Of a stretch of 64,000 nucleotides of DNA, positions 5,603-61,507 are shown one piece after another; the first letter of the stretch is position 1; every line of letters begins with the position of its first letter. The translations under genes were made by a program, and so were the position numbers. Source of the stretch: Rhizophagus irregularis (lineage: Eukaryota). The notes beneath the pieces were generated by a model. The model was not told the origin of the DNA, did no database searches, and saw nothing but the letters and a program-made list of their open reading frames with translations. The stretch is taken from NCBI RefSeq assembly GCF_026210795.1, contig NC_089430.1, positions 3,782,001 to 3,846,000 of the forward strand. The letters are read 5' to 3'.

Positions 5603-5687
5603 CAACTGGAAAATATAACATTTTCATATATATATATTTATTTACTGATGATATACGTTTTTTTTTATTAAATAATAAATATTTTGT

Positions 5688-32070: not shown

Positions 32071-34329
32071 CCGTATATCGCGGGCCACAGTACCCCGGGT
32101 ATCTTGCAAATTTTGGGCATTTGGACCTGTACCCGGGGGTATATTACATGAGTGTGGCCGGCATCATACACAGAGGAGGGGTACAGAATTTTTAAAATAC
32201 CCGGGGTACTTATTGCCATATATAATATCTGAGTATTATGGATAATCGCTATGATGTAATCTCTCGTTAAGAATTTCTAAATATATCCTATTTCTCATAT
32301 CTTGATACTTTTTCAAGATATTTTACACAAAATTACTTATCTAAATACCCCTATTCATACATAAAAATGTCTTTGTTTGATTTACGTGTCTTTATTTTAC
32401 GCATTTTTTTTTTCTTTCTGCTAAAAGTAAAATGGTAGTTATTGGCAACAAGAAAAATAAAAAAACACGCAATCGTTTACCACAAAAGAAACAAAGACAA
32501 TGGAATGTAAGGGAAAAATTAATGATAGTGCATTATTATGAAAATAATAATAGAAATATACGTGGAACTGCCAAAAGATTTGATATTCAGCCCAAACAAC
32601 TGCGTGATTGGAAAAATAAAAAAGGAACTTTGTTAACGACTGCTCCTCATGTGGCTAAACTTCATCCGGGTAAACCTGCCAGATATCTGAAATTAGAAGA
32701 TGATTTATTTGCATGGATAAGTGAAAAAAAAGCCAATGGAAATGCCGTTACTCGAAAATTAATTACCAATAAAGCCATTTCCTTATCCAAAAGTCCAGAA
32801 TTATTAGCAAATAATCCGGGTATTGCTGGGTTCAAATTTTCTAATAAGTGGCTTGAAGGATTTCTGGAAGATATGACCTTAGTGAGCGTCGTAGAACAAC
32901 AGTAGCACAGCAACTGCCATCAGATTTAATTGAAAAGCAAAATATTTTTTTGAGTTATATTATGTACCTAAGAATTCATAATAAATATGAACTAAAATAT
33001 ATAGGCAATATGGATGAAACGCCCATGTGGTTTGATTTGCCGAGTAATACAACTATAAACCAAAAAGGAGCAAAAACGGTAAGTATTCGTACAACTGGTC
33101 AGCGAACGATCATCATTTACAGTTATACTTGCATGTATCTGACGGTACGAAACTTCCTGCAGTTTGCATTTTCAAACTGAAAAATATTCCGAAAGAAAAT
33201 TTTCCACACGGTATTTACATAAGAGCTAATGAAAAAGGGTGGGTTAACGAACAGGAAATGTTGTGGTGGGTTGAGAACGTTTTGGACTTCAAGGAACCGT
33301 TTTGGAAATCCACGTTCTATATTAGTATTAGATTCTTTTCGTGGGCGCTATAGTAAATTCTGTCGAAAAATCGATTTGTGGAAAAAAATACAAACATTGC
33401 CGTAATTCCTGGCGGTTGTACATCCAAATTGCAACCATTAGACGTTGCAATTAATAAGAGTTTTAAATCTAAGGTAATTATTTGATCTTTTTACTTCAAT
33501 TTTATTCTTATTAGTTACTAATATTAGTGAAATTATAGGTTAAAAATCGGTATAATAATTGGATGATATCAAATATTCATACTTTTACTCCAGCGGGAAA
33601 GATTAAAAGACCTTCTTATTCAACAGTCGCAACATGGGTTAAAGAGTCGTAGGATGAAGTTGATGAAAATCTTATTCAAAGATCCTTTAAAAGTTGTGGA
33701 GTTTCGACAAATATTGATGGTTCGGAAGATGATTGTATTTTTGATCATGATAGTTTATTGAATAGAGATAACGAAGTGTTAGAAAATTTTGATAACTCAA
33801 CCGATGAAAATTATGAAGAAGAATATCCCGAAGAAACTAACTACGAGAATAAATGGGATGTTAAAGTTGTTGTTGAAGTTGGTCGGGAAGAAGATAATGA
33901 CAAAAGTGAAAGTGAGAAAGAGGAAGATGATGGTAATTATGATTACCAAGATTCTGATGATCATGGAGAAATGCGTCATAGATTAAGCGAATTAAAAAAA
34001 GTATATAAGGTAAATTTTTTTATATTATTTTATTCCATTTTATCAAATAAAATTGCTAATTATTAAACTTGCATATAATTAGAAATAAAGAATCGATTAA
34101 GGAGTATATTACTATAAATATATTTGTATTACAATAATGAATAACTAATAAATAATACTCCGTTTTAATAAATAAAGTTGTATCCGGGATTTATACCCCA
34201 GGTATTTTACAAATTCTAAGATTTTAAATTGAAGATTTCTATGTAAAGTATCCGGGTACTTTAAAATTCCGATAAATTTTTTTAAAGGGGTACTGTGCAT
34301 AGGAGGGTACTGTGGCCCACGATATACGG
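32071..34329 (+). mobile_element. pogo-family (Tc1/mariner) DNA transposon, full length
   Basis: 24-bp TIR CCGTATATCGCGGGCCACAGTACC with one mismatch at the right end. TA on both sides (32069-70, 34330-31). Confidence 0.93.
32432..34100 (+). pseudogene. pogo transposase (Brinker-like DBD, CENP-B HTH, DDE_1), disabled
   Basis: TAKRFDIQPKQLRDW, FKFSNKWL, NMDETPMWFD, LVLDSF and IPGGCTSKLQPLDVAINKSFK. Several frameshifts, a TAG near 33649, and an intron near 33474-33538. Confidence 0.88.
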
Positions 34330-38583: not shown

Positions 38584-38759
38584 TTATTTACATTACGTTT
38601 TGACAATCTTTAAAATTAAATCTCTCTAAATTTAGCAAGCCAAATAATTTCAAATTTTTATATCTTATATAAAAATATCTAATTTATAACATATTAAAAT
38701 TTTATCCAATTTGAATAACTAATTGTTGAAATATTTTTAAATTTAATTAAACTTCTGGT

Positions 38760-38984
38760 AGGATTCCGCTTACTTATAATAAAAGTCACTATAGAAAATT
38801 GGCCCTTTACTAATAGTTTTTATCTTGTTTTTTTCTTAAATTCTATTGGTTAATTAGCTAAAAAAGAAAAAAATCATAATAATATAACATAAAATTTCCT
38901 TTTATAGTAGGATTTGCAAAGAATTTTATATATGATTTTTACCTTAGGTTTGGGGGTGACCTATCTTATAAGTAAGTGGGTCCT
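38760..38984. mobile_element. MITE, ~225 bp
   Basis: Inverted ends AGGATTCCGCTTACTTATAA / TTATAAGTAAGTGGGTCCT. Flanks CTTCTGGT and CTTCTGGC (7/8 match, candidate 8-bp TSD). Confidence 0.6.
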
Positions 38985-39214
38985 CTTCTGGCCAATTAAA
39001 ATTTAACAATTTTTTATATATACAGTCAACTCCCTCTATAGTCACTATCACACCTATCCTCAAAAATCTTATATTAAAAAGAACCGTTTATAATCACAGT
39101 TATATAAAGAATATATTAAATAACTTGGCATCTAATAATCGTACAAAGATGTATCATAGCTTGTTAGAATCGTCTCACTGAGACGAATCGAATGGCGGTA
39201 GTTTTATCCTTTCC

Positions 39215-40187
39215 TTTCGCTATTGTTTACGGCCGTACCACCCATTGCCTCTTATGAGACTAATCTCGGTCCCGCGTCCTATCATCTTCAATAGGCAACC
39301 ATTAAACCGCACTTAATTCCTCAGGTAACAGCACCATGTAAGACATCCCCCATCGAGCCATTTTAGGCCGATCTGAAGCTGGTGACACGCCGCCTACTCA
39401 TCCTTAATCCATTGTACGATACTGGTACTCAATTTATTTTACGACCTTAGAGAGCACCTACTTTCATGGTGACTTTTGACAGGTAACGTCAACCATCTGA
39501 TGTAGGCCTAACCACTGGCATTTTAGGTACGGAGGTCGGCATCAATTACTGGCAGCCCGCGTCTAGCGCCGATAGTACATTGTTTGCCCACAAGTGGTAT
39601 ACTTATGTAGTGACCACTCGGACAGGAAGTAGCGAGGCTTCGTTCGGATGGCACCCCCTTATGGTGGGTATCGACCAGGAATCGCCAACGGGCCGAAGTG
39701 GAGGGGAATGACAACCCCCATGTATGCCTACCTGTGCGACGTGCACGAAGCACCTTGATTGGCTAAGGCCACAACAGAAGGTCTAACTACCACTAAGACA
39801 TTGCACCCTCAGCTTTACCATCTGTGACGACCATCTAGCCATTACTGACCCCAAGTGGTATCGTGCTGACCACCCAGACAGGAAGCCCCCCAAGGTATAG
39901 TAGCGACCTCCGCGACAGGACTGCGCACATGCCACGGGCCTCATAGCGAACGTTAGAAGGACACCACGACCCTTAGCTTGAAATGTGCGGCCTGACCGTA
40001 CACACTAATTCACCATGATGCAGTCCCAACTACACTAATCCCTGTACCTTCACGCTATTGGTTGTAGCGTCCGCAGTAAAATTCTTTTTTATTTCCGCTG
40101 GTCATAGGAATCGAACCTGCGACCTCCACCATACTCAGGCTTAATGAGGTCTCAGCGACTAACCACCGAGATAGGGCGACCAACCCT
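39215..40187 (-). mobile_element. tRNA-headed SINE-like unit 1 (divergent middle segment)
   Basis: Minus-strand head with GGTTCGATTCC B-box. Flanked by target motif copies at 39200-39214 and 40188-40202. Confidence 0.8.
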
Positions 40188-40202
40188 AGTTTTATCTTTT
40201 CC

Positions 40203-41067
40203 GCGTATTGTTTACGGCCAGACCACCCATTGCCTCTTATGAGACTAATCTCGGGCCTGCGTTCTATCATCATCAATAGGCAACCATTAAACCGAAAGAT
40301 TAATTCCTCAGGTAACAGCACCACGTAGAAGACATCCCCCATCGAGCCATTTTAGGCTGATCTGAAGCTAGTACACGCCGCCTACTCATCCTTAATCCAT
40401 TGTACGATACTGGTACTCAATTTATTTTATGACCTTTAGAGAAGACCTACTTTCATGGAGGACTTTCGACAGGTAACATCAACCATCTAGCACTTACATA
40501 CCACCATTTTATGTTAGCATTTGCGGTCTCACTCAAAGCGCCACTACAGCCCGCGATTACCTAGCACCGATAGTACAGTTGTTTACCCCAAGTGGTATAC
40601 TTACGTAGTGACCACTGACAGGGGAAGTAGCAGGCTTCTGTCCAGGATCACCCCTTATGGTGGTATCAACCACCAGGATCACCAACCAGGACCCAAGAAG
40701 TGGGGAATCGAACCCCATAACCATGCTACCTGTTCTGTGCACGAACACCTTGGTTGGCCTAAGACCTAACAGAAGGTCTAACTACCACTAAGACATTGCA
40801 CTCTCAGCTTTACCATCTAGGACGACCATCTAGCCATTACTGACCCCAAGTGGTATCGTGGAGTGACCACCCAGACAGGAAGTCCTCCCCAAGGTATAGT
40901 AGTGACCTCAAGGACAGGACTGCGCACATGCTAATGGCCTCATAGGAACGTTAGAAGGACACCATGACCCTTAGTTGAAATGTGCGGCCTAACCGTACAC
41001 ACTAATTCACCATGATGCAGTCCAACTACACTAATCCCTGTACCTTCACGCTATTGGTTGTAGCGTC
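40203..41067 (-). mobile_element. SINE-like unit 2, 5'-truncated (lacks tRNA head)
   Basis: Homologous to the other units but ends at GGTTGTAGCGTC, directly joined to the target motif at 41068-41083. Confidence 0.8.
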
Positions 41068-41083
41068 AGTTTTATCCTTTTCC

Positions 41084-42050
41084 TTTGCTATTGTTTACGG
41101 CCAGACTACCCATTGCCTCTTATGAGACTAATCTCGGGTCTGTGTCCTATCATCTTCAATAGGCAACCATTAAACCGAGACTTAATTCCTCAGGTAACAG
41201 CACCATGTGTAAGACATCTCCCATCGAGCCATTTTAGGCTGATCTGAAGCTAGTACACACCGCCTACTCATCCTTAATCCATTGCATGATACTGGTACTC
41301 AATTTATTTTACGACCTTTAGAGAGCACCTACTTTCATGGAGGACTTTCGACAGGTAACATCAACCATCTAAGCACCCTTCCATACCACTATTTTAGGTA
41401 CGAGGTCTCACTCAAAGCGCCACTACAGCCCGCGATTACCTAGCACCGATAGTACAGTTGTTTACCCCAGGTAGTATGGCTTATGTAGTGACCACTGACA
41501 GGAAGTAGTAGGCTTCGTCCAGGATCACCCCATGTGGGTATCAACCACCAGGATCACCAACCAGGATCCCAGAAGTGGGGAATCGAACCCCATAACCATG
41601 CTACCTGTTCTGTGCACGAACACCTTGGTTGGCCTAAAACCTAACAGAAGGTCTAACTACTACTAAGACATTGCACCCTCAGCTTTACCATCTAGGACGA
41701 CCATCTAGCCATTACTGACCCCAAGCGGTATCGTGCGACCACCTGCATATGCTCCCCCCAGCGCATAGAAACACCTCAGCGGACAGGACTGCGCACATGC
41801 CAATGGCCTCATAGTGGAACGTTAAAAGGACACCATGACACTTAGCTTGAAATGTGCGGCCTAACCGTACACACTAATTCACCATGACAGTCCAACTACA
41901 CTAATCCCCGTACCTTCACGCTATTGGTTGTAGCATTCGCAGTAAAATTCTTTTTTATTTTCGTGGTCGGGAATCGAACCTGCGACCTCACCATACTCAG
42001 GCTTACAATGAGCTTTCAGTAACTAAACACCGAGATAGGCGACCAACCCT
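41084..42050 (-). mobile_element. SINE-like unit 3
   Basis: Full-length copy followed by the target motif at 42051-42066. Confidence 0.8.
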
Positions 42051-42066
42051 AGTTTTATCCTTTTCC

Positions 42067-43032
42067 TTTGCTAATGTTTACGGCCAGACCACCCATTGCC
42101 TCTTAATAATTAATCTCAGGTCTTCATATTCTATCATCTTCAACGCAACCATTATACCGCACTTAATTCCTCAGTAACAGCACCACTATAGAAGACATCC
42201 CCCATCGGGCCATTATAGGCTGATCTGAAGCTAAGACACGCCGCCTACTCATCCTATACCCATTGCATGATACTATACTCAATTTATTTAACGACCTTTA
42301 GAGAGCATCTACTTTCATGGAGGACTTTCGACAGGTAACATCAACCATCTAAGTACCCTTCCATACCACCATTTTAGGTACTAAGTCTCATTCAAAGCGC
42401 CACTACAGCCCGCGATTACCTAGCACCGATAGTACAGTTGTTTACCCCAAGGGTATACTGTACGACCACTCGTACATGGTAAGTAGCTTCTCGTCCAGGT
42501 ATCACCCCTTATGGCGGTATCAACCACCAGGGATCACCAACCTAGATCGTTAAGTGGGGTCGAACCCCATAACTACGCTACCTGTTCTGCGCACGAACAC
42601 CTTGGTTGGTCTCGCACCTAACAGAAGGTCAAACTACCACTATGACATTGCACCCTCAGCTTTACCATCTAGGACGACCATCTAGCCATTACTGACCACA
42701 AGTGGTATCGTGGAGTGACCACCTGAACAGGAAGTCCCCCCCAAGGTATAGTAGTGACCTCAAGGACAGGACTGCGCACATACCAATGGCCTCGTAGGGA
42801 ACGTTAGAAGGACACGCACCCTTAGTTGAAATGTGCGGCCTAACCGTACACACTAATTCACCATGATGCAGTCCAACTACACTAATCCCTGTACTTTCAC
42901 GCTATTGGTTGTAGCGTCCGCAGTAAAATTCTTTTTATTTCCGTGGTCATGGGAATCGAACCTGTGACCTCACCATACTCAGGCTTAATGAGGGTCTCAG
43001 TGACTAACCACCGAGATAGGGTGACCAACCCT
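42067..43032 (-). mobile_element. SINE-like unit 4
   Basis: Full-length copy followed by the target motif at 43033-43048. Confidence 0.8.
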
Positions 43033-43048
43033 AGTTTTATCCTTTTCC

Positions 43049-43552
43049 CCTGTACAAACAGTCTTATGACTTTATCTTTTATTTATACTTTGAACTTCGA
43101 AAATATAATCGAACAATATTACAAAAATAAGAAAATAAACTAATAAAAAATAAAAAGAGTAGCTTCACGATTCATACAAGTAAAGAAATCTAAACTAAAA
43201 TAAAATTAAAGCAAAGAAAAACTGAACTATTACAGAATCGCATACCCCAACTTTACCCAAAGGCCAGTGCTGAGTCAACTATCCAACATCCAAAAATCCA
43301 GTCCGTTACCAGAAAGAAATCCTAAGAGGTTGAACTGTTAAGCGGCGCAGAAAATCCAAGTGCGAGATCCAAGATCCACCCCGAATTATAGAAGAGAATA
43401 TCCAAGAAATCCAGGAATCCTGAGAGACTGACGCCAAAGAAGAGTTGTGTTGTTGTGAAGAAGTAGAATTAGGAGAAGCATTTGTAGATGGGCCACGTAA
43501 TTTGGAAGCAGCCGAGATACCCTGCGACTCTTCCCAAGCATGGAAAAGAACA
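43049..43552 (-). mobile_element. LINE 3'-terminal fragment (~500 bp)
   Basis: Near-identical to 53130-53630 (3' UTR plus ORF2 C-terminus ...SWISHLDF). Confidence 0.88.
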
Positions 43553-43821
43553 CACTAGCAAGCTAGTCGAATTAATCTTTAACCGAAGTTTTATGTGTAA
43601 ATTCTGGCTGACATAAAATGTTGTAAAATTTTGTAATTCAATAGAGTAAATTCATCAATCGCTAAAGCGCTGTATATAAATTTCTGATACAGAATGATAA
43701 AATTTGTATTCATAAAGAAAGAGGAAAGGAAATAGGAAAGCTTAAAATAAGCATGAAAAAAATGAAGTGTAAAAGGAGAATAATAAAAGGAAGGTAATTA
43801 ATTAATAAGAAACCAGCGCAA

Positions 43822-46145
43822 TTAGCGCATTAAAAAAACAGGATGAACAAAATCAGCGGGTAATTCCCACGATGTTCGGAAATCAGAAGGAGCAGGGTAA
43901 GGATGTGAATCAAACCAAGGTGCACAAACATCCAATAACATTAAGATATCACAAGGTTTAACACGACCTAGTTTGAAAGAAAACCGTGTTTCACTATTCC
44001 AAAGATGTGAAAATGTCGAAGAGGAAGCCGATTTGGTGATAACAGATTGAATGGCATCTCGAAGATACTTCTTTGATACCGAGGAAGTATTGTGCTTGGA
44101 AATTAATAACCAAAGGAAATTGTAGAAGAGGTACATAAATGAAGCACTATTCGAGAGTATCCTTCAGGACTATATCAATAATGGAACGACTAAAGCCAAG
44201 AGTTTTGAAATCTTGATAATCAATAGCAGGGCAGTTCGGACCAACAAAAGGACCAGAGGTGGGTTTGTCAGTGATAAAATGACTTGCAACTACAGAAGAG
44301 GGATTCAAAACCACTTTTTGGATAGAACCTGTAAACTTAGAAGACACGAACGCAACAGAAGATTGATGTGAACGTTCTTTTAAACAGAAGGAAACGTCAG
44401 GACGTGAGGATACAAGATTACGTATATTCTGGACAATTGAGTAATCAGTAGTAGACATAGTCAAATTATAGGAGGTAGGAGGAATGACTATAGCAGGATC
44501 CTTAGTGGCCATCCACATAGAAGAGTCAAGAAGATCGGGGTGAACAACATGTCGTGAAAATTTGCTCCGGTCTGATAAAAGGTCTTTACGCGTACTTCGA
44601 CGAGCAAGTTGTTTCTTCGTAGGGTGGGAGATAGATTTGTGAGCAGAATATGAGATAAGAGTTCGGGCAGAGAGTGAACCACTGTCGTCTCAAGAACATG
44701 ATGGAAAGCATAGGATTTGCGGTAGGAAACTCCTAGACGTCGGGAAGTAACGTCTTTATAAAAACCATCAGCGTGTCTTTTAGACACACGATTACAAGGT
44801 AAAGCGAAAGGAGGACAAGGAGGAGGGGAAGGAGTGTGAACAAGTTTTTTGTCATGAATATGACAAGCATGCGAAATGAGACATAACATAGGCAGCACGA
44901 GTCTTGCAAAACGGGCAACCAAAATAAAGGCCAAGGTAAAAACAAGATTGTTGGTATCGAAATTGAATAAAGGTACGAGAAGACGTCTATTATTACGATG
45001 AGAAGATGACCAACGGGCAAGAGAGGTAACCCGTTGTGTTAATAAAAGCTGGCGTAACCTATTAAAATATTTACGTCGAGCATGGGAGGGAATACGGTTT
45101 TGTCGGTAAAAGAAAAAGGTTAAAAATTTTGATAAAATAAATTTCAAATTAGGAGAAGGGCGGTCAGATGTAAATTGAAATGGATCCATAGTTGAAAGGA
45201 GAGGAGAATTGGTATGAACTGAATAACAATTATCCGAATCAGGAGTGGGGTCCAAAAGAAAGTAACAGTTGCCTCGGCGAATAGAATATAAACGGTTAGA
45301 GCTAACATTTCGAGCAGGACGTATCCGTCCATCCAAGATGGTACGTATTGTGAAAGTGTAAGATGAACACTGTACATTATCATGAAGAAGATGGGCTGAA
45401 GTAGAAGTTGCCGGTAAAGGTTCCGCAGGTGTACAATTCAAAGAAAGGACTGGAGAAGGGACGTTAATGTCATAATCAGCAGTATCTTCTGAAACTGAAA
45501 TTCGGGGAGTAATAAGAGAGGAGTCTAGGAATGTATTTTGAAAGGGACTTATAGGTTCAGAAGGACGTGATAAAGGTGGAACCAATAAACGTATTGTAGA
45601 AGGAGATAAAACCAGACGCGTAAAAGACAATTTAGTCTTAATTTTCTGTGCGCGCTTAAAAGATGCAGGGGAAATCATAGAGGATACGCGTTTACAAAGA
45701 AATTTATGAGTACGCCGTGAAGGGCGTAAACAATTGGTGCGTCGTGTAGAAGGGGTACGATAAATCTAAGATGAGATTAGGATCAGCCTCGTGTTTAGAA
45801 GCCCAAATAGCTAATGGAAGAGGAGGTAGATTATCAATCAATGGATCATCATGTGATTGATGATCGTCAACGAGGGGATAGCGAAATCCTTTTCGAATCC
45901 GCAGTAGACGAAAGAGTAGCAAATGCAAGTGTAAAAGGCGTTTTTGTTCAGAAAGAGATCATCTACATGAGCGCCAAAAGCGAGTAAGCACGTGACTTGG
46001 CGAAGAGTTATCAGGAAGAGAGTTGTAACGAGCAAAAAGAGTTTCTTGTTTAAGGGCGCACTTAGCGCGAAGGTCCTCAACTTCGCGAAGTTTGGAAAGA
46101 ACTTCATCCCAACTCAAGGTTGAGAAGTCGTGAGAAGAGGCCATA
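43822..46145 (-). pseudogene. Degenerate long ORF of unknown function (~770 codons with stops and frameshifts) joined to the LINE 3' end
   Basis: Consecutive minus-strand ORF pieces from MASSHDFSTLSWDEVL to ...ELPADFVHPVFLMR*. No introns evident; includes a CPFC...CHIH cluster. Confidence 0.6.
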
Positions 46146-46292
46146 GGCCAGAATAAGAATAGAAAAGATAAAAATAAAAGAAAAAGTAATAAAAAACTTT
46201 GGAAAAAAAATTTTTTATTTTTATGTAAATAATGTCGTGAGGGCAACGGGAGAGAGTTCAGTTTTTAGTTTTTCCTAGTTTTATCCTTTTCC

Positions 46293-47263
46293 TTTGCAAG
46301 TGTTTACGGCCAGACCACCCATTGCCTCTTATGAGACTAATCTCTGTGTCCTATCATCTTCAATGGGCAACCATTAAACCGAGTACTTAATTCCTCAGGT
46401 AACAGCACCACATAGAAGACATCCCCCATCGGGCCATTTTAGGCTGATCTGGAGCTAGGTACACGCCGCCTACTCATCCTATACCCATTGCATGATACTG
46501 ATACTCAATTTATTTTACGACCTTTAGAGAGCATCTACTTTCATGGAGGACTTTCGACAGGTAACATCAACCATCTAGTACCCTTCCATACCACCATTTT
46601 AGGTACTAAGTCTCACTCAAAGGCCACTACAGCCCGCGATTACCCAGCACCGATAGTACAGTTGTTTACCCCAAGTGGTATACTTTGTAGTGACCACTCA
46701 GACAGGAAGTAGCAGGCATCTGTCCAGGATCACCCCTTATGGTGGGTATCAACCACCAGGGATCACCAACCAGGACCCAAGCGAGAAATCGAACCCTATA
46801 GCCATGCTACCTGTTCTGTGCACGAACACTTTGGTTGGTCTAAGACCTAACAGAAGGTCAAACTACCACTAAGACATTGCACCCTCAGCTTTACCATCTA
46901 GGACGACCATCTAGCCATTACTGACCCCAAGTGGTATCGTGGAGTGACCACCCAGACAGGAAGTCCCCCCGCGGTATAGTAGTAACCTCAGGACAGGACT
47001 GCGCACATGCCAATGGCCTCCATAGGGAACGTTAGAAGGACACCATGACCCTTAGTTGAAATGTGCGGCCTAACCGTACACACTAATTCACCATGATGCA
47101 GTCCAACTACACTAATCCCCTGTACCTTCACGCTATTGGTTGTAGCGTCGCAGTAAAATTCTTTTTATTTCCGTGGTCATGGGAATCGAACCTGCGACCT
47201 CACCATACTCAGGCTTAATGAGGGTCTCAGTGACTAACCACCGAGATAGGGTGACCAACCCTT
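46293..47263 (-). mobile_element. SINE-like unit 5
   Basis: Full-length copy between target motifs at 46277-46292 and 47264-47279. Confidence 0.8.
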
Positions 47264-47410
47264 AGTTTTATCCTTTTCCGATCACTGGCTGACGAGTTAT
47301 TCAACAAAATGTTAAACATCGGCATTATAATATTTCTTGATTTACGTTTACTGCGCCATTTAACATTTTGCTAGATTTCTCAGTACCTAGTGATTGTAAA
47401 AAGACGATTT

Positions 47411-47790
47411 ATAGCTCGTTGGAATCGCCTCATCGAGACGAATCGAATGGTGGTAAGCTCATCTCTCTATGATCAATATATTGACGGAGTTATTACTTAA
47501 AAACTATTTAATATTTTTTAATTTCGGAAATTGATCTAGTGATTGGATTTCAATGTATCTTATACCATTAGATTTGTCTCATCAAGACGAATCGAATGGT
47601 AGTAAGATCGTTTTTCTAGGATCAATATTGGCAGAGTTATTATACAAAAACCATTAATATTTTTTTAATTTCGGAAATTAATCTAGTGATTGGATTTCGA
47701 CGTATTTTATACCATTAGAACCGTCTCATCAAGACGAATCGAATGGCGGTAAGATCATCTTTCTACGATTAACATTGGCAAAGTTACGAT
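47411..47790. repeat. Three ~148-bp internal repeats with long palindromes (host copy 1)
   Basis: TACCATTAGA(T/A)...GTCTCATCAAGACGAATCGAATGG at ~47563 and ~47710, with a variant at ~47420. Confidence 0.8.
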
Positions 47791-48214
47791 ACAATAAAGT
47801 TTTAAGTATAATTCTGGCTAAAATTATGTTAATTTTTGGCCGGAATTATGACATACAAATATAAGAAATTTTTTATATAGTCACATCTCTTTATAATCAC
47901 CAAATATGGACTGTCCCAAATGTGTGACTATAAAGAGAGTTGACTGTATATATGAATTATTTTGTAAAATTTAAATAGCAATTTATAATATTTTTTTTAT
48001 TTATTTAACTTTATAATTAATAGAATTTCATATCAATTTAATTTTATTTAATTATATTATATAATAAGGGGAGTTACATATATTACGTAATATTCATTTT
48101 AATATAAACTTACTCCCCTCTCCCCTTTGTCAGATTTAATAACCAATCAAATTATAATATTTATAAATTATATATTTTATTAAGTGTAACGTAAAATTTT
48201 GGTTACCCTCCTCC

Positions 48215-51200
48215 TATACATGCGGGTGAATTAGGATTAGGTGATGCCAAAATATTACGGCAGTGTAATGTATTACACCACAAAATGTCAAAATGAGTTA
48301 CACTACCGTAATGCCAAATTGGCGAATTGACGAAATGAATTACACTGTCGTAATGCCGAATTGATGAATTGACGAAATAAATTGCACTGCCATAATGCCG
48401 AATTGACGAAATGACAAATTGCCAAATTGCCAAATTGATAAAATAAATTATACCGTATTACCGTTGAATTGCACTTTATTAAAATCATTAACTACTTTTA
48501 ATTATTTACTTCAAATAATTTTTATCAAATTATAAATCTTTATCGCATAAGTTTATAATATATAAAAGCAGTACAAAAAAATTTATTATATATAAAACTA
48601 CTACTCAGAAAAAAACTATTACAAATTACCTATTTTAAAGAAAAACAAAAAAAAATACTACTGTAATTACTGCGTTTCATTTTCTTTAGTGCTATTAACT
48701 TTAGCAAGAATATCATCTACATTAAATTTCATTTCACCATGATCAATTTTTTCAGGTTCCATTTCTTCCTCAGACCTCAGTATGATTTAATTTAATCAAA
48801 TTACCTACTATTAAATCTGAATCATCTTCGGTTAATTGATCATTATTTCCTTCTTCATCTTCTGGAACCAAATTTTCAAAAGGATCATTATCATTTTCTA
48901 TTTCATTAATAAACATATCTGAATCTGAAGTAAGTGAATTAGTATAACTTTGCATTATTTCACTAAAAGCGTCATCAGATAGATTTTTGCCAACATAATT
49001 AAGTTCTTGTTGTGCATTCAAAATATAAAATGAATGCAATCTTGCCATATTGGATACTTTTTCCACTTTAAGTCTAATAAATATAAAAAAGAATTTAATA
49101 AAAAAATATAAATTTTAATAAAATAAATATTCTATGAATATACCTGCTTCGTCTTTTTTGGGTAAACCAATTTAATACTGAGAAAACACGCTCACAGCTT
49201 GCACTATGAGGAACAATAGAAAGAATATATAAAGCCAATTCTTGCAAATAATGATTTGATTGTTTACATCCTAACCACCATGATTGGGGAGTTTGAAGTT
49301 CGTCAATATAAGGAAAATTATAAGGAGACTTAAAATCATCATAATTATTCATTTGAACAGCAAGTGTAAATGCTGATTTTAATCCTCCGCCCATTTTTGA
49401 CCATAAGGCAAAAGCTTTCCTTTGGATTAGTAATTGATAGGTTTTAGGTATAAATCCTTTTCCGCGAAATTTTGGATGCAAAAAATATGCTAGTAAATAT
49501 AATTCATGATCAAACTGCTTCCATCTATTATTATAAAATTGAATGCATTTTTGCCGAAACTCTTTTAATTCTTCAGTACTTTCAGTAGATAAAGCCTTGA
49601 TAGCAGTAGCCATTTGAATGAGAGCCAAAAAAACATCAGCCATAGTTGCATTTTTACCTTCAATACTCTTCACAGCATTTTTTGCAGGTTCTAAAATAGT
49701 TGTAAGACTTTCAACATTCAACCAAAAATTTCGATTATTTACTAAATTTTGTAAAGTTTGATTCATTGCTTTAGAATCAGCAATTAACATCTAGAAATAT
49801 AATAATAAAATATTTAATAATTTGACATTAACTTAGAAATTAACTACAATTTCACTTACATTTTTGAAAATAGTTTCTAAACGTAATACTGATGTACAGC
49901 AATCCCAAGCAGTACTCCATCTTGTTTTAACCGAACTTTTTAATCTACCTCCAACAATTAACTCTTTTTTGATTTTTTCACGAAGAGTAGCTCCAGATTG
50001 ATGTGACTCAGCAAAATAAGTAACAAATTTCTGACAGTTAATAAGTATATTATTTGAAAATGGATTTTTTTTCATAATATCAGTACAAATTAATTGCACG
50101 TGATGAGCGATACAACGGACTGGCAAAATTTTAGGATATTCTTCAGATATTAATCTCTTAGCTAATTGCATAGCACTAGCATTATCCGACACTACTGAAG
50201 AAAAACGCTGTGGGCCTATATCTTTAAGGACTTTCTTTATTTCTTCTGCTGTAAAAAGACCAGTGTGAGAGTTTTTTGAACAGTCTTTAACTTTAATTAC
50301 ATATTCTTTTCGTTCAGGAGTAATTATAACAAAAGAAAAATAAGAATGATGGTTGCTACTTGTCCATCCGTCTAACACTTAATATTGAAATAAAAATAAT
50401 ATTAATATTTATTGGAGATATAATAAATAAAAAAAAATTATTTACCAAGTGAAAGATTTTCTTGTTTTTTAAGTATTTCTTCAACATCAACGGTAATTCT
50501 TGCCACTTCATTACTAAGCCAAGTATCACTTAATGTTTTCCTGTCTGGCAATTGATAACTAACGCATAAATTCATTACAAGATCAATAAAGAATGGACTT
50601 TCTACAGTAGAAAAAAGGACGCCACAGCATACAAAAAATCTAGTCAATGCTCTATTACAAAGATATTGTTGTCCAGGATCTATTGCTGATTTTTGTAATT
50701 TAGATGTGATTTTTGGTTGAATTCCAGTTGCAATTTCTTCATTAAGTTTTCGCTTCCTTGTAGTAATTCGACCAGAAGATTGCTCATTATTTTGTGCAAG
50801 AATTCTGAGATATTGTTCTTTAACTGAAGCTTCAACTTTTTCACATTATAATGCTAAATGTGCCATCATATCTGGAACTCTTCCTCTGTTCCAAGCATCG
50901 CCACAATATACACAAGTACTAGGTGAGTGGCCAAATTTTCTAGCTTCCTCTTCAATAAAATAATTCCATATATCATTTTTTTTCTTGCCAGGCTTCTTGA
51001 ATTCTTCAGTTTCCGGAAGATCTGATAATTCTACAAAATTTAGATCTTGAAAAGATCTTGTTTCATCAAGAGAATCTGTTTCATTAGCCATAATTTCTCT
51101 TTAATTAACTTTTGTAATAGAAAATTTGAAAAAAAATAGCATGCGAAAACTTTTTCCGATAAATATTGATCAACCTGATTACATTTTAGCCAATCATTAA

Positions 51201-52546: not shown

Positions 52547-53129
52547 CCCTCCCCCCCTTTGATAATTACATAATATCTGTAAGCTTCCTAATTGAAACAT
52601 AGAATTTTTTATAATCATAATTATTTTTATTATACACTGTATTAATTAATTTAACTATATAAATTTATATTAGAAAATACATTATTAGTTAATTAATAAT
52701 ATAATTTGTAATTAGATAGTATAATAAAACAATGCAATAAATTTTTATATTAAAAAAAAATTTTAATTAACATTTTGTTTTGATTGTTTTATGTATTTTC
52801 TAATAAAATATTAGTGTTTTTCAATTAAAAATACAGTCAACTCCCTCTATAGTCACTCCCGTTATAGTCACATTCTACTATATAGTCACACCAGTTGAAT
52901 GTTCAAAACACTTTATTATTAAAAACTATCCTATATAGTCACAATCTATCTATAGTCACTATCACACCTATCCTCAAAAATCTTATATTAAAAAGAACCG
53001 TTTATAATCACAGTTATTTAAAGAATATATTAAATAACTTGGCATCTAATAATCGTACAAAGATGTATCATAGCTTGTTAGAATCGTCTCACTGAGATTA
53101 ATCGAATGGTGGTAGTTTTATCCTTTTGC

Positions 53130-55523
53130 TGTGCAAACAGTCTTATGACTTTATCTTTTATTTATACTTTGGATTTCGAAAAGTAATCGAACAATATTAC
53201 AAAAATAAGAAAATAAACGAATAAAAAATAAAAAGAGTAGCTTCACGACTCATACAAGTAAAGAAATCTAAACTAAAATAAAATTAAAGCAAAGAAAAAC
53301 TGAACTATTACAGAATCGCATACCCCAACTTTACCCGAAGGCCAGTGTGAGTCAACTATCCAACATCCAAAAATCCAGTCCGTTACCAGAAAGAGATCCT
53401 AAGAGGTTGAACTGTTAAGCGGCGCAGAAAATCCAAGTGCGAGATCCAAGATCCACCCCGAATTATAGAAGAGGATATCCAAGAAATCCAGGAATCCTGA
53501 GAAACTGACGCCAAAGAAGAGTTGTGTTGCTGTGGAGAAGTAGTATTAGGGAAAGAATTTGTAGATGGGCCACGTAGTTTGGAAGCAGCCGAGATACCCT
53601 GCGACTCCTCCCAAGCATGGAAAAGAACATTCCGATACAGCCAAATTTCACCATATAATTCGACTTGGAAGTCATTAAGAAGGGGAGAAATAATCTTGTA
53701 TATAACAGAGAGAGGAAAGTATTGATTCAAAAATGCCGTTAAATGCGCAGGCAACAATCCTCGAGTAAGCCAAAGACAGGATGAAGAAGGAGCTTCATAG
53801 TTCCAGCAATCCAAAGCAAAGAATGCAGTATGAAAGGAATTATCCAAAGATTTCAAGGATAAGAAAGAAGATAAACAAGAATCTCTAAATTTAATGACTT
53901 CAGACCGGTGTGTTAAACAGGGATTTAAATCTGGTAAAATATAAGGACAAGTCCAAAGATGATTCAAATCTTCAGGAGCAGAATTACACTGCGGACAGAG
54001 CCAGTCAGGAGAATATAAGTAAGGTTTACGTTGTTGAAGAGTAGTTAAGGTAGGCAACATATCCAAAAGAAGTTTAATGCGGAAGATCCAAAATTCAGGA
54101 CGACCATTCCTATGTGAAACAAAACCTTTAATTTGTGAAAGGCAAAAATATATACCAGCCCAATCAAAAAGTGAAGGAGAACCAAGAGCAGTAAAACGCG
54201 CTAGTGAACAGAAAGATAAGAGAGCACGAGCATCTGCAATAGAGCGGAGAAAATGTCGAATATTCACGTCAATAGGCAGGGAGTTAAAGGTCAACAAGCA
54301 TGGAGCATAACAAAATGTCGAAAGTAAAGTAGTGGGTTGTAAAGACGAATGAGCGTCTTTTGCCAAAGAATCCGCTTGTATATTGTAAATATCATCGCCA
54401 TGAGCAGGGACTTTAATCAATTCGACATTAAGATTACGGTCCATGATAAGTTGTCGAATAAAAAGCCAAAGAAGATGATTAGGTTTTCGGAGCAACCTCG
54501 GTGAGAAAGGAGCATCAACAAACCGTGTCCATAGTGAAATTAACTGACTACAATCAGTATGAACAGAGATTGACGAATTACGGGAAAGGGCATTCAGTCC
54601 TAACAGGACAGCAGAAATTTCAGAACGCAAAGCGGAAGGAAAGTAAGAAGGGAGATGCATGGAAGAAGATTCCAGAACAAGTCCAACATCATCAAGAGCG
54701 ATCCAAGCAGAAGTCATGGAAGAAGGCGAAGAATCATTGGCATGATGGAACGAACCATCTGTGTACAAAGATTGCACCGAAAGTGGTAAAATAGTGTCTT
54801 CAATTCTATCGATACTATCCTTAAAAAGAGGAGAAAGAGCGAGAGACGCGTTCGAAAAATGAACAAGAGCCAAGGAGGTTGCATAACTCCATGAAGTAGA
54901 TAGAGTAATGGGAAGATAAGCCGCGAAAACTTTGGCATTTCTGGTAGGATAGCCCACAGTATCCGATAGGGTTACATTAAAAAAGCATTTCTCGCTATTA
55001 CAGCGTTGTCTGATGGCAGATTTCATGGATAAGGCGGGAATGTTAAGAGCACAACCGGGACAAGGGTTATAGGATCGTTCATCAGCCGAGGTAGATACAG
55101 GAAGCCAATGAGACATAATAGCCGAGTTTTGTTTCTTATAAGTGATACACACACGACCAACAGATAAAGTTTGAGTAGCAGAGTCAAGAGTAATAACCCA
55201 TTGAGGATAAAAAGAATAATCTTTAACAGTATGATCTAATAAACAAGGAGAAGCTAAAGTAAAAGAAGAATTAATAAAATATGAAGATAAAAGTAAAGTA
55301 GAAGAAGAAGAAGAGAGAAAATTATTATTGATAAAAGTAAACCAATTAGGGATCCGTCCTTTACGACCAACGATGCCAAGATAACGAAGGTCAGGCCAAT
55401 TCATAAGATAACGTCCACAAGGAGAAACCAACTGAGCAAGCACAAATATATTCAGGTTTTTCCAAAGTTTCCAACTCGATTGAAAAATGGAATGAGGTAG
55501 AATAGATCGGAGTGGCAGAGCAG
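53130..55523 (-). mobile_element. 5'-truncated non-LTR retrotransposon with 16-bp TSD
   Basis: AGTTTTATCCTTTTGC at 53114-53129 and 55524-55539. Encodes RNase H and a C-terminal zinc finger. Confidence 0.92.
53383..55443 (-). CDS. LINE ORF2 C-terminal part: RNase H plus CCHC zinc finger (RT lost by truncation)
   Basis: LYTDGS, SALRSEISAVLLGL, VHTDCSQLI, KVPAHGDDIYNIQADSLAK and CPQCNSAPEDLNHLWTC. Confidence 0.88.
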   Translation of the reverse strand: MLAQLVSPCGRYLMNWPDLRYLGIVGRKGRIPNWFTFINNNFLSSSSSTLLLSSYFINSSFTLASPCLLDHTVKDYSFYPQWVITLDSATQTLSVGRVCITYKKQNSAIMSHWLPVSTSADERSYNPCPGCALNIPALSMKSAIRQRCNSEKCFFNVTLSDTVGYPTRNAKVFAAYLPITLSTSWSYATSLALVHFSNASLALSPLFKDSIDRIEDTILPLSVQSLYTDGSFHHANDSSPSSMTSAWIALDDVGLVLESSSMHLPSYFPSALRSEISAVLLGLNALSRNSSISVHTDCSQLISLWTRFVDAPFSPRLLRKPNHLLWLFIRQLIMDRNLNVELIKVPAHGDDIYNIQADSLAKDAHSSLQPTTLLSTFCYAPCLLTFNSLPIDVNIRHFLRSIADARALLSFCSLARFTALGSPSLFDWAGIYFCLSQIKGFVSHRNGRPEFWIFRIKLLLDMLPTLTTLQQRKPYLYSPDWLCPQCNSAPEDLNHLWTCPYILPDLNPCLTHRSEVIKFRDSCLSSFLSLKSLDNSFHTAFFALDCWNYEAPSSSCLWLTRGLLPAHLTAFLNQYFPLSVIYKIISPLLNDFQVELYGEIWLYRNVLFHAWEESQGISAASKLRGPSTNSFPNTTSPQQHNSSLASVSQDSWISWISSSIIRGGSWISHLDFLRRLTVQPLRISFW

Positions 55524-55671
55524 AGTTTTATCCTTTTGCGATCACTGGCTGATGAGTTATTAAACAAAATGTTAAGCATCGGCATTATTATATTTCTTGA
55601 TTTACGTTTACTGCGCCATTTAACATTTTGCTAAATTTCTCGGTACCTATGGATTGTAAAAAGACGATTAA

Positions 55672-56050
55672 TAGCTCGTTGGAATCGCCTCATCAAGACG
55701 AATCGAATGGTGGTAAGCTCATCTCTCTGTGATCAATATTGACGGAGTTACTACTTAAAAACCATTTAATATTTTTTAATTTCGGAAATTGATCTAGTGA
55801 TTGGATTTCGATGTATTTTATACCATTAGATTCGTCGCATTAAGACGAATCGAATGGTAGTAAGATTGTCTCTCTAGGATCAATATTGGCAGAGTTATTA
55901 CACAAAAACCATTAATATTTTTTTAATTTCGGAAATTAATCTAGTGATTGGATTTTGATGTATTTTATACCATTAGAACCGTCTCATCAAGACGAATCGA
56001 ATGGCGGTAAGATCATCTCTCTACGATTAATATTGGCGGAGCTACGATAC
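55672..56050. repeat. Three ~148-bp palindrome-containing repeats (host copy 2)
   Basis: TACCATTAGATTCGTC-GCATTAA-GACGAATCGAATGGTA at ~55821, with related copies at ~55680 and ~55968. Confidence 0.8.
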
Positions 56051-56307
56051 AATAAAGTTTTGAGTATAATTTTGGCTAAAATTATATTAATTTTTGGCCG
56101 GAATTATGATATACTAATATAAGAAATTTTTTATATAGTCACATCTCTTTATAATCACCAAATATGAGGATCATCGCAACTCTTTCCTGAATTTTTGAAA
56201 ATACTAATAAAAATTTATTTTTGAAATTTTCGTTCGAAAATTTCTAAGTGCTCGTTCAAAATACTAATATCTTCCCAGTTGCTTTCCTCTTTACTGAGCT
56301 TTAAACT

Positions 56308-58422
56308 ATGACTACACCTCCAGCTCCTTCTGTTATTAACCCAGATATTCCACCGCCATCGCGTCCTGTTGTTTCTACTCCCTCTGGAGACCGACCTTTA
56401 TCTCCCACTAGTACCGCTGGCGCACCTAATAAACGTACGCGTACTGTCTCTGATGACGCGATGAATGTTGATATAACTTCGCCCTCAGCTCCTGCTCCCA
56501 CCCATACTTCTACCGTTCCTTCTGGTCTTCCTGTCAACAAAGTCCAAGTGCTTACCTCTCTTCATAATACTACTACTCCTGTTGAAACAGTTGACGCTTC
56601 TATCCATGCCCCCTCTAACACCGATGGTAAAGGCAAAGCTGTTGCCTTTGATATCCCAGAACGCCAACCATCCCCCGATGGTAATACCGCCGCTATCAAA
56701 TCTGCACCATCTCGTTATCATGCTGCGGCTTATTTACGCGATGTGCCTGACGCGTTCAAAGCCAAATTCACCACCAATCGCTCCATGTGTGATGAAGTGG
56801 ATTGTTCACTCTTCCGATATTCCTCCTATGGCGCTCGCGCACGCTGCGATGAATCAGGTGATAACAAAAAGATCCTTGTCTTCTTCTATAATCAGCATGA
56901 TTTTACCGATTGTGTCAGCTCCCCACGTGCAGATCTTCTCGATTTAGTCTTCACTCATTATTCCCCTGCAGATGTTAAACTCAGCGACGAAGCGAAGTCT
57001 TTGTTTGTCACTGACATCCCACTTTTCCTAAACGAGACACAAGTCCGCCAGGCATTTTCCCGATATGGTACTGTGATCAAGTGTAAACTCACCCCTAAAA
57101 AACATTACTATAATGGTCATATCCAATTTTCCTCTGCGGATGCAATTACCCAATTTAACGATATCTGAATGATCATTTGCCTAGGTAATTCCTTACGTGT
57201 CTGTTCGGCATCTTTCTCGAAATCCCAACGTGATAGCCAAAGAGAACATGTCACCATTCTTGCCGGGATTCCAAAAAATATAAAAGAAGCTGACCTTTTA
57301 GAAATTGCTACTCAAGTCAACGCTAAAGCCCTTAATGTCCCCCTTTCTATTAATTCTTATAAGCCCAAACCTTATGTGTATTTAAACTTCTCTTCGTTTG
57401 ATACCCTTGAGGCGGCGAAATAGTTATCTGTGGCTTTCCGCGGCAAAGGTTTAACATGGCACCCTCCTAATGAAGCTCACACTTTATGTCATGTCTGTGG
57501 ACGTTCAGGTTGCTCCCCTTCTGTATGTAACCCTCGTCCCGCACACAAAGTGGATGATCGCCTTAACAAACTATATTCACGCTTTAATGCTGGTCCTCAA
57601 CGTGGTCATCAGGATTCGCACCCATCACATGATACATCCAATTCCCGCTCAAGATCGAGATCCACCTCTAGATCCCGTAATAATTCGTCCTCATCCAGAA
57701 CCAACAACACTAATAATAATCTTAACACTTCTCGTCCCAATGTTCCTAACTGTAGCAACCAGTTCAATAACAATAATACCGATTCTAGGAACAATGCAAA
57801 TTCTTCTGGTTCTACCCAATCTCCGCACACTCTTCATCCTAACAATACTACATCTACTTCTCTGAATAACAACCTTAATTGTACGCTTCCTCAACACATC
57901 ATTGATGAGTTAAAGGCGCAGATCAAAAAGATAGCTATCACCCTCAATACTCTAGAGGAAACTGTCTCTTGGATGAATGATACTATCACAGCCCATGAGT
58001 ATAGGCTATCTGAACTTGAATCAATGATGAATTATGACAACCCTGGTGACTCTGATTTGTATCCGCCTCGTGATGATCATGAAAATCAAAATCATTCTTA
58101 TGATAATGGATGGGATGATGCTCCAACCCAAGACACAAATTCTGGATTCAATCTTCCTCCCCATACTTCCCCTTCTCTTATGGACACTTCTCCTGATGCA
58201 TCCTTTTCAGCTCTGGACCCTAACTCCATCTTATCACGAAGACATGTCCCCTTACCTAACTCCCGACCTACTATTATTACCCCCGATGCTAATACTTCCC
58301 GTCTGCAATTGGAAATTTCTAATGTTACTAATACGCAAAAGAATCTTTCTGCCCAACTTGGTTCGATTATGGAAAAATTGGACTCCTTCTCTCCCTCAAA
58401 ACCCTCCCCTTCCAATGATTGA
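56308..58422 (+). pseudogene. LINE ORF1 (RRM domains plus Cys/His knuckle-like motif), two in-frame stops
   Basis: LFVTDIPLFLNETQVRQAFSRYGTVIKC (RRM), second RRM-like region YVYLNFSS, CHVCGRSGC. Stops at 57166 and 57421 in one frame. Confidence 0.8.
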
Positions 58423-59413
58423 ACACCATTTTATATTGGGTGTTTCACAGGGATTTCACCCCCCTGATAGTGCGATACCTAATAATATCAATAATCCTAA
58501 CAATTCTTCTTTTTCTTCTTCCCCTCTTATTAATTTTGGACAAATCAATGTTAATGGTTTGTGCTCCCCTGTTCGTCAGCTGCATTTGTTAAATTATTTT
58601 CTCCATTCTTCTTTTGGCGTTTTATCTTTAAACGATACTCGTCTTACTTCTTCTAGTGCTAAATTTATTTATCAAAATGAACATTCCCAGTATAATTTTA
58701 AGTCCTATTGGGCTCCTTCCCCTTCTAATTCACGTCCTTATGATGGTGTTAGTCTTTTGCTTCGCCATCCCTTACATAAACATGTTCAGAAAATTGATCC
58801 TTGGAAAGGTCGTCTTTTAAAATTGGATCTTTTTTTCCATCAAACAAAAATTTCTATCATTTCCGTTTATATTCCTCCTTATCATTCTATTCATTACAAA
58901 GAACGTGATGCTATTTTTGCACAACTCAATTTATGGCTTGATAAAGCCCGTTCTAATAACTATCACGTTGTCATTCTTGGTGACTTTAATGCAGATGAAT
59001 TTTCACATTCACATCTTCCTCAACATCATTTAAAAATTTTGCGATCACTTTCTTTTTGATATTTTACGGATCATCAATCCCATATTTCTTCAATTTCAGG
59101 TCCTAGTCCTACCTTTTATTACCAAAATGGTTCTTCAAGACTTGATTATATTTGGTCATCCCCTGGATTTCCTGCTCCCGGTCTTTTCTCTCATGTTGAA
59201 TCTTGTCCTAAGCTAAATGATAATCAATTTACTGATCACCGTGTACTCTTTACGGCCTTTGACTTTAGCTCATGTTTCGCTACTTTATCCAAAGCTAGAT
59301 TAAAACAGAAAAGCGAACAACGCACCATTTTTCTTTATAAGAATTTAAAAGAAGATACTTGAGACACCTTTTCTAATGAAGTTAATTCACGTCTCGAGTT
59401 ATATTTGGCCACA
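58415..59413 (+). pseudogene. LINE ORF2 N-terminus: APE-type endonuclease
   Basis: INVNGL, LNDT, DGV, SVYIPP, ILGDFN, SRLDYIW and FTDH. The ATG overlaps the ORF1 stop; stops at 59057 and ~59360. Confidence 0.88.
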
Positions 59414-61507
59414 CACCCTATAAAAAATATGTATACAGTTTTTATACTGTATATACGTATTTTTGATACAGTTTGCATTTTTACATACGGCATATCAGTA
59501 TAATGTATACTGTTCGCAAAATGTGCTTAGTAAAAAATACAATAAAGTATACGGTAAACATACTGTGTGATACGGTATATTAAATTCATACGTCTATAAC
59601 GTATATCATTTCTACTGTATATCAGTATTTTGTATACGGTTCACAAAAATATTGTAAATAAAGAATACGGTATACGTATTATTCTACAGTATATTAAAAT
59701 TCATACGTTTATAACGTATTTTCTACAGATATACACAGGTCAAATAAATAAACATCAGATTTTTGCCCTTTTTAATATGGCTGTCTGATTTTTTTGGCAA
59801 TTTTAATATAATATTTCCGATTTTAATAAATATTTCTGATTTTAATATAATATTTCTGATTTTTAACATGAAATTGCCGATTTTTGGTTATTTGTAATAG
59901 GATTTTTCGATTTTAATATATAACATGTGATTATGTATTACGGTTTAATATTTATTTATTAACTTAGATTTTTTTTTTATTTCAGTTATAATTATTTTTT
60001 TGCCTTTTTTTCTTAAATATAAATACATTTAAATTAAATAACTCATAATTTAAAATATAAACAAATATTATATTTTTTTACATATATTTCAAAGTATAGT
60101 TTGAGCATTTTGGCTGAAGTAAATCTTATTCTTTTAATTAAAAGTAGTTTAGTAAGTTTAAAACTGTTAAGATCATAAAAGTACAGTTAATATTTTTGGA
60201 ATTATTTACATTTTTTATATTATATAGTAGTATTAAATTACAAATTTTTTTACCTTTAGAGCGTATTTTGAGATCTTTAGCCAAAGTAAATCAACTTCTT
60301 ATATTAATTGTAAGTTGTTCGGCAGGTTAAAATCTACTTGGATATTAATTTTCACGAAGGTACAGTTAATACTTGATGAGTTATTTACAATTTTCACAAC
60401 AGTACTCATTCACGACTTTTATTTTTTTCATTTTGTCACTTCAGAGCGTATTTTGAGATCTTTAGCCAAAGTAAATCAACTTCTTATATTAATTGTAAGT
60501 TGTTCGGCAAGTTAAAATCTACTTGGATATTAATTTTCACGAAGGTACAGTTAATACTTGATGAGTTATTTACAATTTTCACAACAGTACTCATTCACGA
60601 CTTTTATTTTTTTCATTTTGTCACTTCAGAGCGTATTTTGAGCACTTTATCTAAAGTAAACCAACTTCTTATATTAATTGAAAGTTGTTTAGCATGTCAA
60701 AATCTACTTGAATATTAATTTTCACGAAGGTACAGTTAATACTTGATGAGTTATTCACGATTTTCACAATGGTACTCATTTACGAATTTTATTTTTTTCC
60801 GTTTTGTCACTTCAGAGCATATTTTGAGCACTTTAGTCAACGTAAATTGACTTCTTTTATTAATTGAAAGTTGTTTAGCATGTCAAAATCTACTTGAATA
60901 TTAATTTTCACGAAGGTACAGTTAATACTTGATGAGTTATTCACGATTTTCACAATGGTACTCATTTACGAATTTTATTTTTTTCCGTTTTGTCATATTT
61001 TGAGCACTTTAGTCAAAGTAAATTGACTTCTTTTATTAATTGAAAGTTGTTTAGCATGTCAAAATCTACTTGGATATTAATTTTTACAAAGGTACAGTTA
61101 ATACTTGATGAGTTATTCACGATTTTCACAACAGTACTCATTTACGAATTTTATTTTTTCCATTTTGTTACTTCAGAGCGTATTTTAAGCACTTTAGCCA
61201 AAGTAAATCGACTTCTTTTATTAATTAAAAATTGTTCAGCAGCTTAGAATCTACTTGAATATTTATTTTAATGAAGGCACAGTTAATATTTGTGGAGTTA
61301 TTAATTTTTTATAATTGTGCGTATTACATTAAATTACAAGTAAATTTATATTCTTAATGTATTTTGTTTAAAATTTAATTATTTAAGATTAGTTTTTTAT
61401 TTAATATTGCTTAATAAAATATTTTTTAAATTTTAATTCAATATTACAATATAATTTTTTATAAAAATATATATTTCATAATGTATATACAATTTTTTTG
61501 TATAGTG
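59414..61507. mobile_element. Possible CAC-terminated non-autonomous DNA element
   Basis: Begins CACCCTATAAAAAATATGTATACAG. Weak inverted match ending ...GTATAGTG at 61507. Dense TATAC(G/A/T)GT subterminal repeats at 59430-59720. No TSD seen. Confidence 0.35.
60095..61310. repeat. ~185-bp tandem repeat, about 6.5 copies
   Basis: AGAGCGTATTTTGAG... unit starts at about 60258, 60443, 60628, 60814, 60995 and 61175. Confidence 0.92.

Follow-up and report, generated by a model that had tools for sequence, protein, structure and literature searches.

How does a run of related transposable elements come to stand head to tail, with the same short motif between each element and the next? The question is raised by a locus of the fungus Rhizophagus irregularis (contig NC_089430.1, positions 3,782,001 to 3,846,000). 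This stretch of 64 kb, hereafter the window, is AT-rich and holds fungal genes and transposons; the positions given below are counted from its first base. On its minus strand lies an array of five units of about 970 nt, which resemble short interspersed elements (SINEs), and one insert of 3.2 kb, separated by seven motifs of 16-17 bp. The proteins encoded in the array and next to it have their closest named relatives in R. irregularis. The window, four public runs and protein collections were the basis of all tests. The results make it probable that the array was built by serial target-primed insertion, in which a long interspersed element (LINE) with a preferred site duplicated that site each time.

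The array and its host transposon

The layout given in a preliminary description of this DNA was recovered in full: seven motifs, five related units and a 3.2-kb insert in the same register. From the left, motif copy 1 (39199-39214) is one T short and runs on from the left arm of the host element described below. It is followed by unit 1 (39215-40186), which is full length and the most divergent of the five, its differences being clustered in the middle third. Motif copy 2 (40187-40202) is one C short, and in both of these copies the missing base falls in a homopolymer run. Unit 2 (40203-41067) is 5′-truncated by about 105 nt and is without the transfer RNA (tRNA)-like head. Motif copy 3 (41068-41083) stands at this truncated junction and has 16 of the 17 bases, the outer base being absent. 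Unit 2 had been said to be truncated only at its 5′ end, which is right, and to abut an intact motif, which is not. Unit 3 (41084-42049), motif copy 4 (42050-42066), unit 4 (42067-43031) and motif copy 5 (43032-43048) come next, and then the 3.2-kb insert (43049-46275), which is bracketed by two perfect motifs, copy 5 and copy 6 (46276-46292). The array ends with unit 5 (46293-47262), the one nearest to the majority of the five, and motif copy 7 (47263-47279), which runs into the right arm of the host and appears to have kept the original nick context. Copies 4 and 7 are also perfect 17-mers. The five units, all on the minus strand and 864-971 nt long, share with the insert the same orientation, intact 3′ ends and variable 5′ truncation. 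The 16-mer core of the motif was matched seven times in the window, five times in the array and twice in a second copy of the host, against 0.01 matches expected from shuffles. The arrangement was correctly said not to be CRISPR: its "spacers" are homologous retroelements of about 1 kb, and none of the 13 scanned open reading frames (ORFs) belonged to a cas family.

The array lies inside a small transposon, which is found twice in the window. In copy A, the left arm (39023-39198) begins with a terminal inverted repeat at 39023, has a TA flank and matches copy B (52932-53126) at 95%; the right arm (47280-47946) contains internal repeats of about 147 bp and ends with the terminal inverted repeat at 47946. 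Copy B covers 52834-56166, with a left arm at 52834-53112 and a right arm at 55540-56166, the latter cut at 56167 by an unrelated LINE family. Without its inserts the host element measures about 860 bp and is non-coding; its inverted ends, at 39023 and 47946, are flanked by TA on the outside. Such ends and flanks are presumably the signature of the Tc1/mariner superfamily, and we read the host as a Tc1/mariner-type miniature inverted-repeat transposable element (MITE).

The source of the motif was then apparent. When the flanks were joined by script, they formed one unit of the ~147-bp internal repeat of the host. The motifs around a LINE in host copy B end in GC, and those of the array in copy A end in CC. 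Because these variants match the local host and the flanks rejoin as a 147-bp repeat, the motif is a duplication of local host sequence; it is a host-derived target-site duplication and not part of the inserted elements. Three paralogous ~147-bp units per host copy are without the motif and empty of inserts.

The same separator also flanks a single insertion. In host copy B, one 5′-truncated LINE lies on the minus strand (53130-55523; 53113-55539 including motifs) with its own motif variant on both sides (53113-53129 and 55524-55539). With sites taken at random, a second insertion into an 860-bp element would land on one given base and strand by chance in roughly 1 in 1,700 cases. The core insertion mechanism of the preliminary description is probably right, but the host MITE and the partner LINE had been overlooked.

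Serial insertion as the probable origin, and its rivals

If evolutionary rates are similar, local duplication later than the split of the two host copies should leave units that are closer to each other than the host copies are, so that a larger divergence among the units favours serial insertion. Host copies A and B differed at 38 of 781 positions (4.9%), with 1 indel. The ten pairs of units differed by 6.7-17.2%, with 14-32 indels, which bears out the earlier remark that the units are mutually different. All four neighbouring pairs exceeded the host value, with Fisher p values of 2e-12 to 0.009 for substitutions and ≤0.001 for indels. Moreover, three element types share one register and one orientation, and a 16-bp duplication was kept by each of the 5′-truncated inserts, unit 2 and the LINE in copy B.

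The alleles that distinguish the units were also compared with those of the wider family. Contigs of the public runs were aligned to 38700-40205, and variant sites were scored at 28 positions within unit 1, among 40 listed of 94; contig depth was summed and does not equal copy number. At 39405-39408, the haplotype that sets units 4-5 apart from units 1-3 accounted for 47-84% of the summed contig depth in all four independent runs; at 39305, the allele seen in unit 4 alone accounted for 46-56%. Since such splitting and private alleles are frequent in the runs, differences of this kind exist in the wider family outside the locus. Head-motif-tail joints were present in short-read contigs (depth 160 in X1 and 1123 in X12), and another 5′-truncated unit adjoining the motif was found in X2 contigs. 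The claim of serial target-primed insertion with site duplication is thus probably right, given the host-derived motif and the independent insertion at the same site in copy B, and it is further backed by units too divergent for local duplication and by alleles common among other copies of the family.

Several observations weigh against this conclusion. The closest pair, the non-adjacent units 2 and 5, exceeds the host divergence for transversions and indels only (substitutions, p = 0.11). The alleles common to units 1 and 2 at 39415 and 39417 made up at most 1% of the depth in three of the four runs and 62-68% in X4, and the allele common to units 1-3 at 39293 made up 4-12%. Informative sites conflict, with units 4 and 5 grouped at 9 and units 1 and 4 at another 9 of 35. 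The GC content of the SINE-like units is 47-51%, whereas that of the host is 31%, and the units may decay faster. Their tails share with those of the LINE only an 8-nt hairpin-like stretch, seen by eye, so that the shared site is the basis for supposing that the SINE is mobilised in trans. Finally, no read or contig of the public runs spans the array, and the best runs carry 38-46% of its words. Taken with the conflicting sites, the rare alleles of units 1 and 2 make some local copying, conversion or mosaic ancestry possible.

One explanation built on such sites is that a first insertion, or a dimer, was multiplied by local unequal exchange or conversion, and that separate insertion was confined to the 3.2-kb element, perhaps with one or two of the SINEs. 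The grouping of units 4 and 5 (94/97 support) and the rare alleles that units 1 and 2 have in common would fit such a history, and the conflict among informative sites suggests mosaic units. However, neighbouring units are 8-15% apart, more than the host copies are, and no two units share an identical tract of more than 94 nt, a length reached by units 2 and 5, which are not neighbours. The 5′ truncation of unit 2 is unrepeated, and the splitting alleles are common outside the locus. We therefore consider an origin by local exchange unlikely.

Alternatively, several units may have arrived as a block, by polymerase III read-through of head-to-tail copies elsewhere (3′ transduction), in which case there were fewer events than units. 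On the element strand, five consecutive T do not occur between the unit 4 head and position 39080 in the host, and in X12 the head-motif-tail joint is about four times as deep as single pieces are; both observations are consistent with such an arrival. On the other hand, serial insertion would still be needed at the donor locus to make the motifs, and the truncated unit 2 lies mid-run, an outcome that one round of reverse transcription would not yield. No identical block of several units was noticed at another place, although a search for one was not possible. Arrival as a block is thus decidedly improbable.

The assembly itself was also considered. In the middle of unit 1, three 51-bp bins had a depth of 0-81 across all four runs at 85% likeness; this part is either strain-private or partly wrong, and consensus errors may inflate the divergence of unit 1. 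That the array, or much of the unit divergence, is a long-read consensus artefact in a high-copy repeat would agree with this almost depthless middle, with best holders that carry no more than 46% of the array words, with the clustering of unit differences and with motifs 1 and 2 differing by homopolymer length, but it is hardly credible, because indels number just 0.1-0.4 per 100 nt when the array's LINE tail and the host arms are compared with their second copies, the LINE ORF in copy B stays open, tandem joints and several indels recur in short-read contigs, and a collapse would not put a different 3.2-kb element in register.

Serial insertion thus remains the probable origin of the array, but the idea that it accumulated as an ordered record was not borne out. 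From left to right, the units diverge from the majority of the others by 12.1, 3.7, 6.3, 8.1 and 3.1%, and the age gradient along the array was not significant (rho = -0.6, p = 0.28, n = 5); each of the seven motifs might serve as a target again. The three motifs at the left end are the altered ones, but two of them differ in homopolymer length and the third marks a truncation junction.

The partner LINE and the elements it may mobilise

The LINE in host copy B retains an open C-terminal part of ORF2, of about 712-714 codons, with RNase H. Its ORF is 96% identical to P0043, a protein of 1,774 residues with APE endonuclease, reverse transcriptase and RNase H domains (PF03372, PF00078 and PF00075, all above cut-off). 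The P0043 cluster consists of 143 sequences and also includes the RRM-type ORF1 P0078, and the solved structures nearest to the LINE protein are human L1 ORF2 and R2. These results show that an intact endonuclease-reverse transcriptase-RNase H ORF2 family is present in the databases of the species. In the window, both of the 3′ ends of this LINE family (2/2) lie at the motif site. Pattern scans of metagenome contigs, prokaryote genomes and viral contigs returned no locus. A second LINE family occupies 56167-59420 on the plus strand, with an RRM-type ORF1 and an APE endonuclease; it interrupts host copy B at the right end and is in turn interrupted near 59420. It was rejected as a test of specificity, being another family (66% endonuclease identity to P0043) at another site.

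The heads of the SINE-like units are tRNA-like. A B-box-like T arm aligns, and the Rfam match to tRNA-Sec is weak (24.5 bits, E 0.26, cut-off 47 bits). ARAGORN found no tRNA gene, and an Rfam scan of 38900-48000 gave a single match at E up to 5, to the tRNA clan, and no U1 or U2 small nuclear RNA (snRNA) head. The units lack a poly(A) tail, and all their ORFs are shorter than 100 codons. Their family is multicopy, with 2,521-7,134 contig pieces per run aligned to the host plus unit 1. A conserved RNA structure was not supported (covariation term +10.2 kcal/mol; two-sided changes in 7 of 283 pairs), and the folding of unit 5 had z = -2.0 in 20 shuffles. The RNA runs contain 6-7% of the array words, which is not evidence of expression. 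An internal module of each unit is repeated about 255 nt apart (46686-46710 and 46940-46964; also 46668-46681 and 46924-46937), and a second B-box-like hairpin occurs near the middle of each unit. Given the repeated module and the second hairpin, the SINE-like unit may be a composite.

The most likely model of the insertion begins with a nick that the LINE endonuclease would make in the plus strand, where the motif is T-rich at its end; the freed 3′ end would prime reverse transcription on the minus-strand RNA. A second nick 16-17 nt away would then duplicate the site and leave it re-usable. The SINE and the gene carrier described below would use the LINE ORF2 in trans, as the shared site and, for the carrier, also the shared tail suggest. 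The rightmost motif, with the original nick context presumably kept, would be the likeliest next target, and the array would grow rightward. Since no T5 terminator is found from the head of unit 4 to 39080 in the host, a read-through RNA could end in the motif; speculatively, such an RNA might pair with the nicked strand and sharpen the targeting. For R1Bm, the passage on priming in PMC7265360 states that downstream target sequence is required for accurate priming.

The 3.2-kb insert had been called a chimera. It is not a one-off but belongs to a recurring element type, and the pairing with a LINE tail was found in two database gene models. All of its parts lie on the minus strand. The 3′ part (43049-43552) is a LINE tail with the last ~82-84 codons of ORF2, aligned to P0043 by tblastn, and the 3′ untranslated region; these 504 bases differ by 3.6% from the LINE end in host copy B. 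The tail adjoins a spacer of about 270 nt (43553-43821), which is also found behind other copies of the passenger ORF: the gene models P0009 and P0094 extend into it, and the end of P0025 is similar by eye. The passenger ORF (43822-46144) has three frame changes here and measures about 775 codons in intact relatives, and it is preceded by a T-rich leader (46145-46275).

The passenger ORF has 40 close relatives, the named ones all from Rhizophagus, and 240 representatives at E up to 0.001. It had no Pfam match, as was also the case for all 40 close relatives, and 55 scanned of 143 distant relatives gave one weak, unrelated Pfam match. A C-x2-C...C-x2-H motif is conserved at 94-99% across 78 aligned proteins, and our guess from this sequence pattern is that the passenger protein might bind nucleic acid or zinc. 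ESM Atlas matches to the ORF (0.76-0.77) serve as leads only, and some distant relatives presumably resemble DUF8211 proteins.

Among the 40 close relatives, P0028 of R. diaphanus carries a LINE ORF2 tail, which scored 26.3 bits against at most 6.4 in 1,000 shuffles; by plain BLASTP the tail reached only E 0.10. Among the 143 further relatives, P0112 has an 80-residue tail that is 97.5% identical to a different LINE family and begins near the same point. The two tail fusions in 183 proteins are a floor and not a frequency, because gene models rarely include the tail. That the ORF is fused, at almost one breakpoint, to tails from two or more LINE families suggests a family of gene-carrying non-autonomous retroelements, and the insert is most likely a recurring gene-carrying non-autonomous element that borrows a LINE tail. 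The passenger ORF was also considered as the ORF1 of the LINE. This was rejected, as it matched none of 37 long LINE models and no longer fused form was found; the RRM-type ORF1 in the LINE cluster speaks against it as well.

Other repeats surround these elements in the window. A small inverted-end element at 38759-38979 is high-copy in all four runs and joins a SINE copy at 39498 in some contigs. A tandem repeat of ~170-180 bp occupies 60068-61308, followed at 61705-62110 by palindromic repeats of ~92 bp. Remnants of DNA transposons comprise a MULE/FAR1 element (9342-10787), a Tc5/pogo-type DNA-binding domain (32381-34066) and a hAT element (48770-50845).

Related systems and what the array may mean

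The closest parallel comes from crocodilians. The passages of Kojima 2015 that concern it report that SINEU-3 and Tx1-Mar prefer a site in Mariner-N4_AMi and make a 16-bp duplication (PMC4494074); tandem SINEU-3 copies sandwich the duplication, which is ascribed there to sequential insertion, and truncated copies are treated as independent events (PMC4494074). The present locus likewise has a SINE and a LINE at a Mariner-type site, a similar duplication and tandem SINEs. In contrast to SINEU-3/Tx1-Mar, it is found in a fungus, its units of ~970 nt have a tRNA-like and not an snRNA head, its LINE has RNase H, and six inserts stand in one run together with a protein-coding passenger. The system works like SINEU/Tx1-Mar but is not a SINEU, having no snRNA head. 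Internal repeats are also a feature of Tx1D, a transposon of Xenopus. This non-autonomous DNA transposon is the target of the LINE Tx1L in the same source; the host is of piggyBac type, the LINE belongs to the animal Tx1 clade, and the passage describes no SINE array (PMC4494074).

In the relevant part of their preprint, McGurk and Barbash describe tandem transposons produced by double insertion, with distinct 5′ truncations marking independent insertions, and an R1 array in Drosophila ribosomal DNA is ascribed to a dimer expanded by unequal exchange (bioRxiv 10.1101/158386). Like the R1 array, the present one consists of head-to-tail elements separated by a target duplication; unlike it, the units are divergent and mixed and lie inside a MITE, not in ribosomal DNA. 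In Trypanosoma, tandem copies of ingi and RIME are separated by 12-bp duplications. This LINE and its SINE share an insertion site at the RHS hot spot, according to the section of PMC7563717 that treats them; unlike here, a family of genes serves as the host, and the elements are not related.

The mechanism of array building is thus already known (PMC4494074; bioRxiv 10.1101/158386). New families of both SINEs and LINEs have been listed in a study on the transposons of R. irregularis (PMC11075540). The terms "target site", "nested" and "MITE" do not occur in its main text, and its supplements or library may hold the families described here. A literature search with little coverage of subscription journals turned up no paper that describes target-specific retroelements, or arrays of this kind, in these fungi. 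What appears to be new is the fungal instance, the six mixed inserts in one run and the gene-carrying passenger.

A broader proposal is that a sequence-specific LINE of Rhizophagus re-uses its own duplicated site with fixed polarity, so that MITE copies across the genome would serve as dated, ordered logs of retrotransposition, and that the same machinery carries a lineage-specific, zinc-finger-like gene on a non-autonomous element, which acquires tails of different LINE families at almost one breakpoint; we put this forward tentatively and with considerable doubt. If the findings hold true, fungi would join the lineages whose LINEs and SINEs favour a site in another transposon; most descriptions of this safe-haven strategy have so far come from animals. 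They offer a concrete endonuclease and a 17-bp target for assay, and one multicopy "hypothetical protein" family of Rhizophagus would be explained as the cargo of a LINE-tailed element. Moreover, the length and order of such arrays could mark strains and nuclei and clock retroelement activity in arbuscular mycorrhizal fungi.

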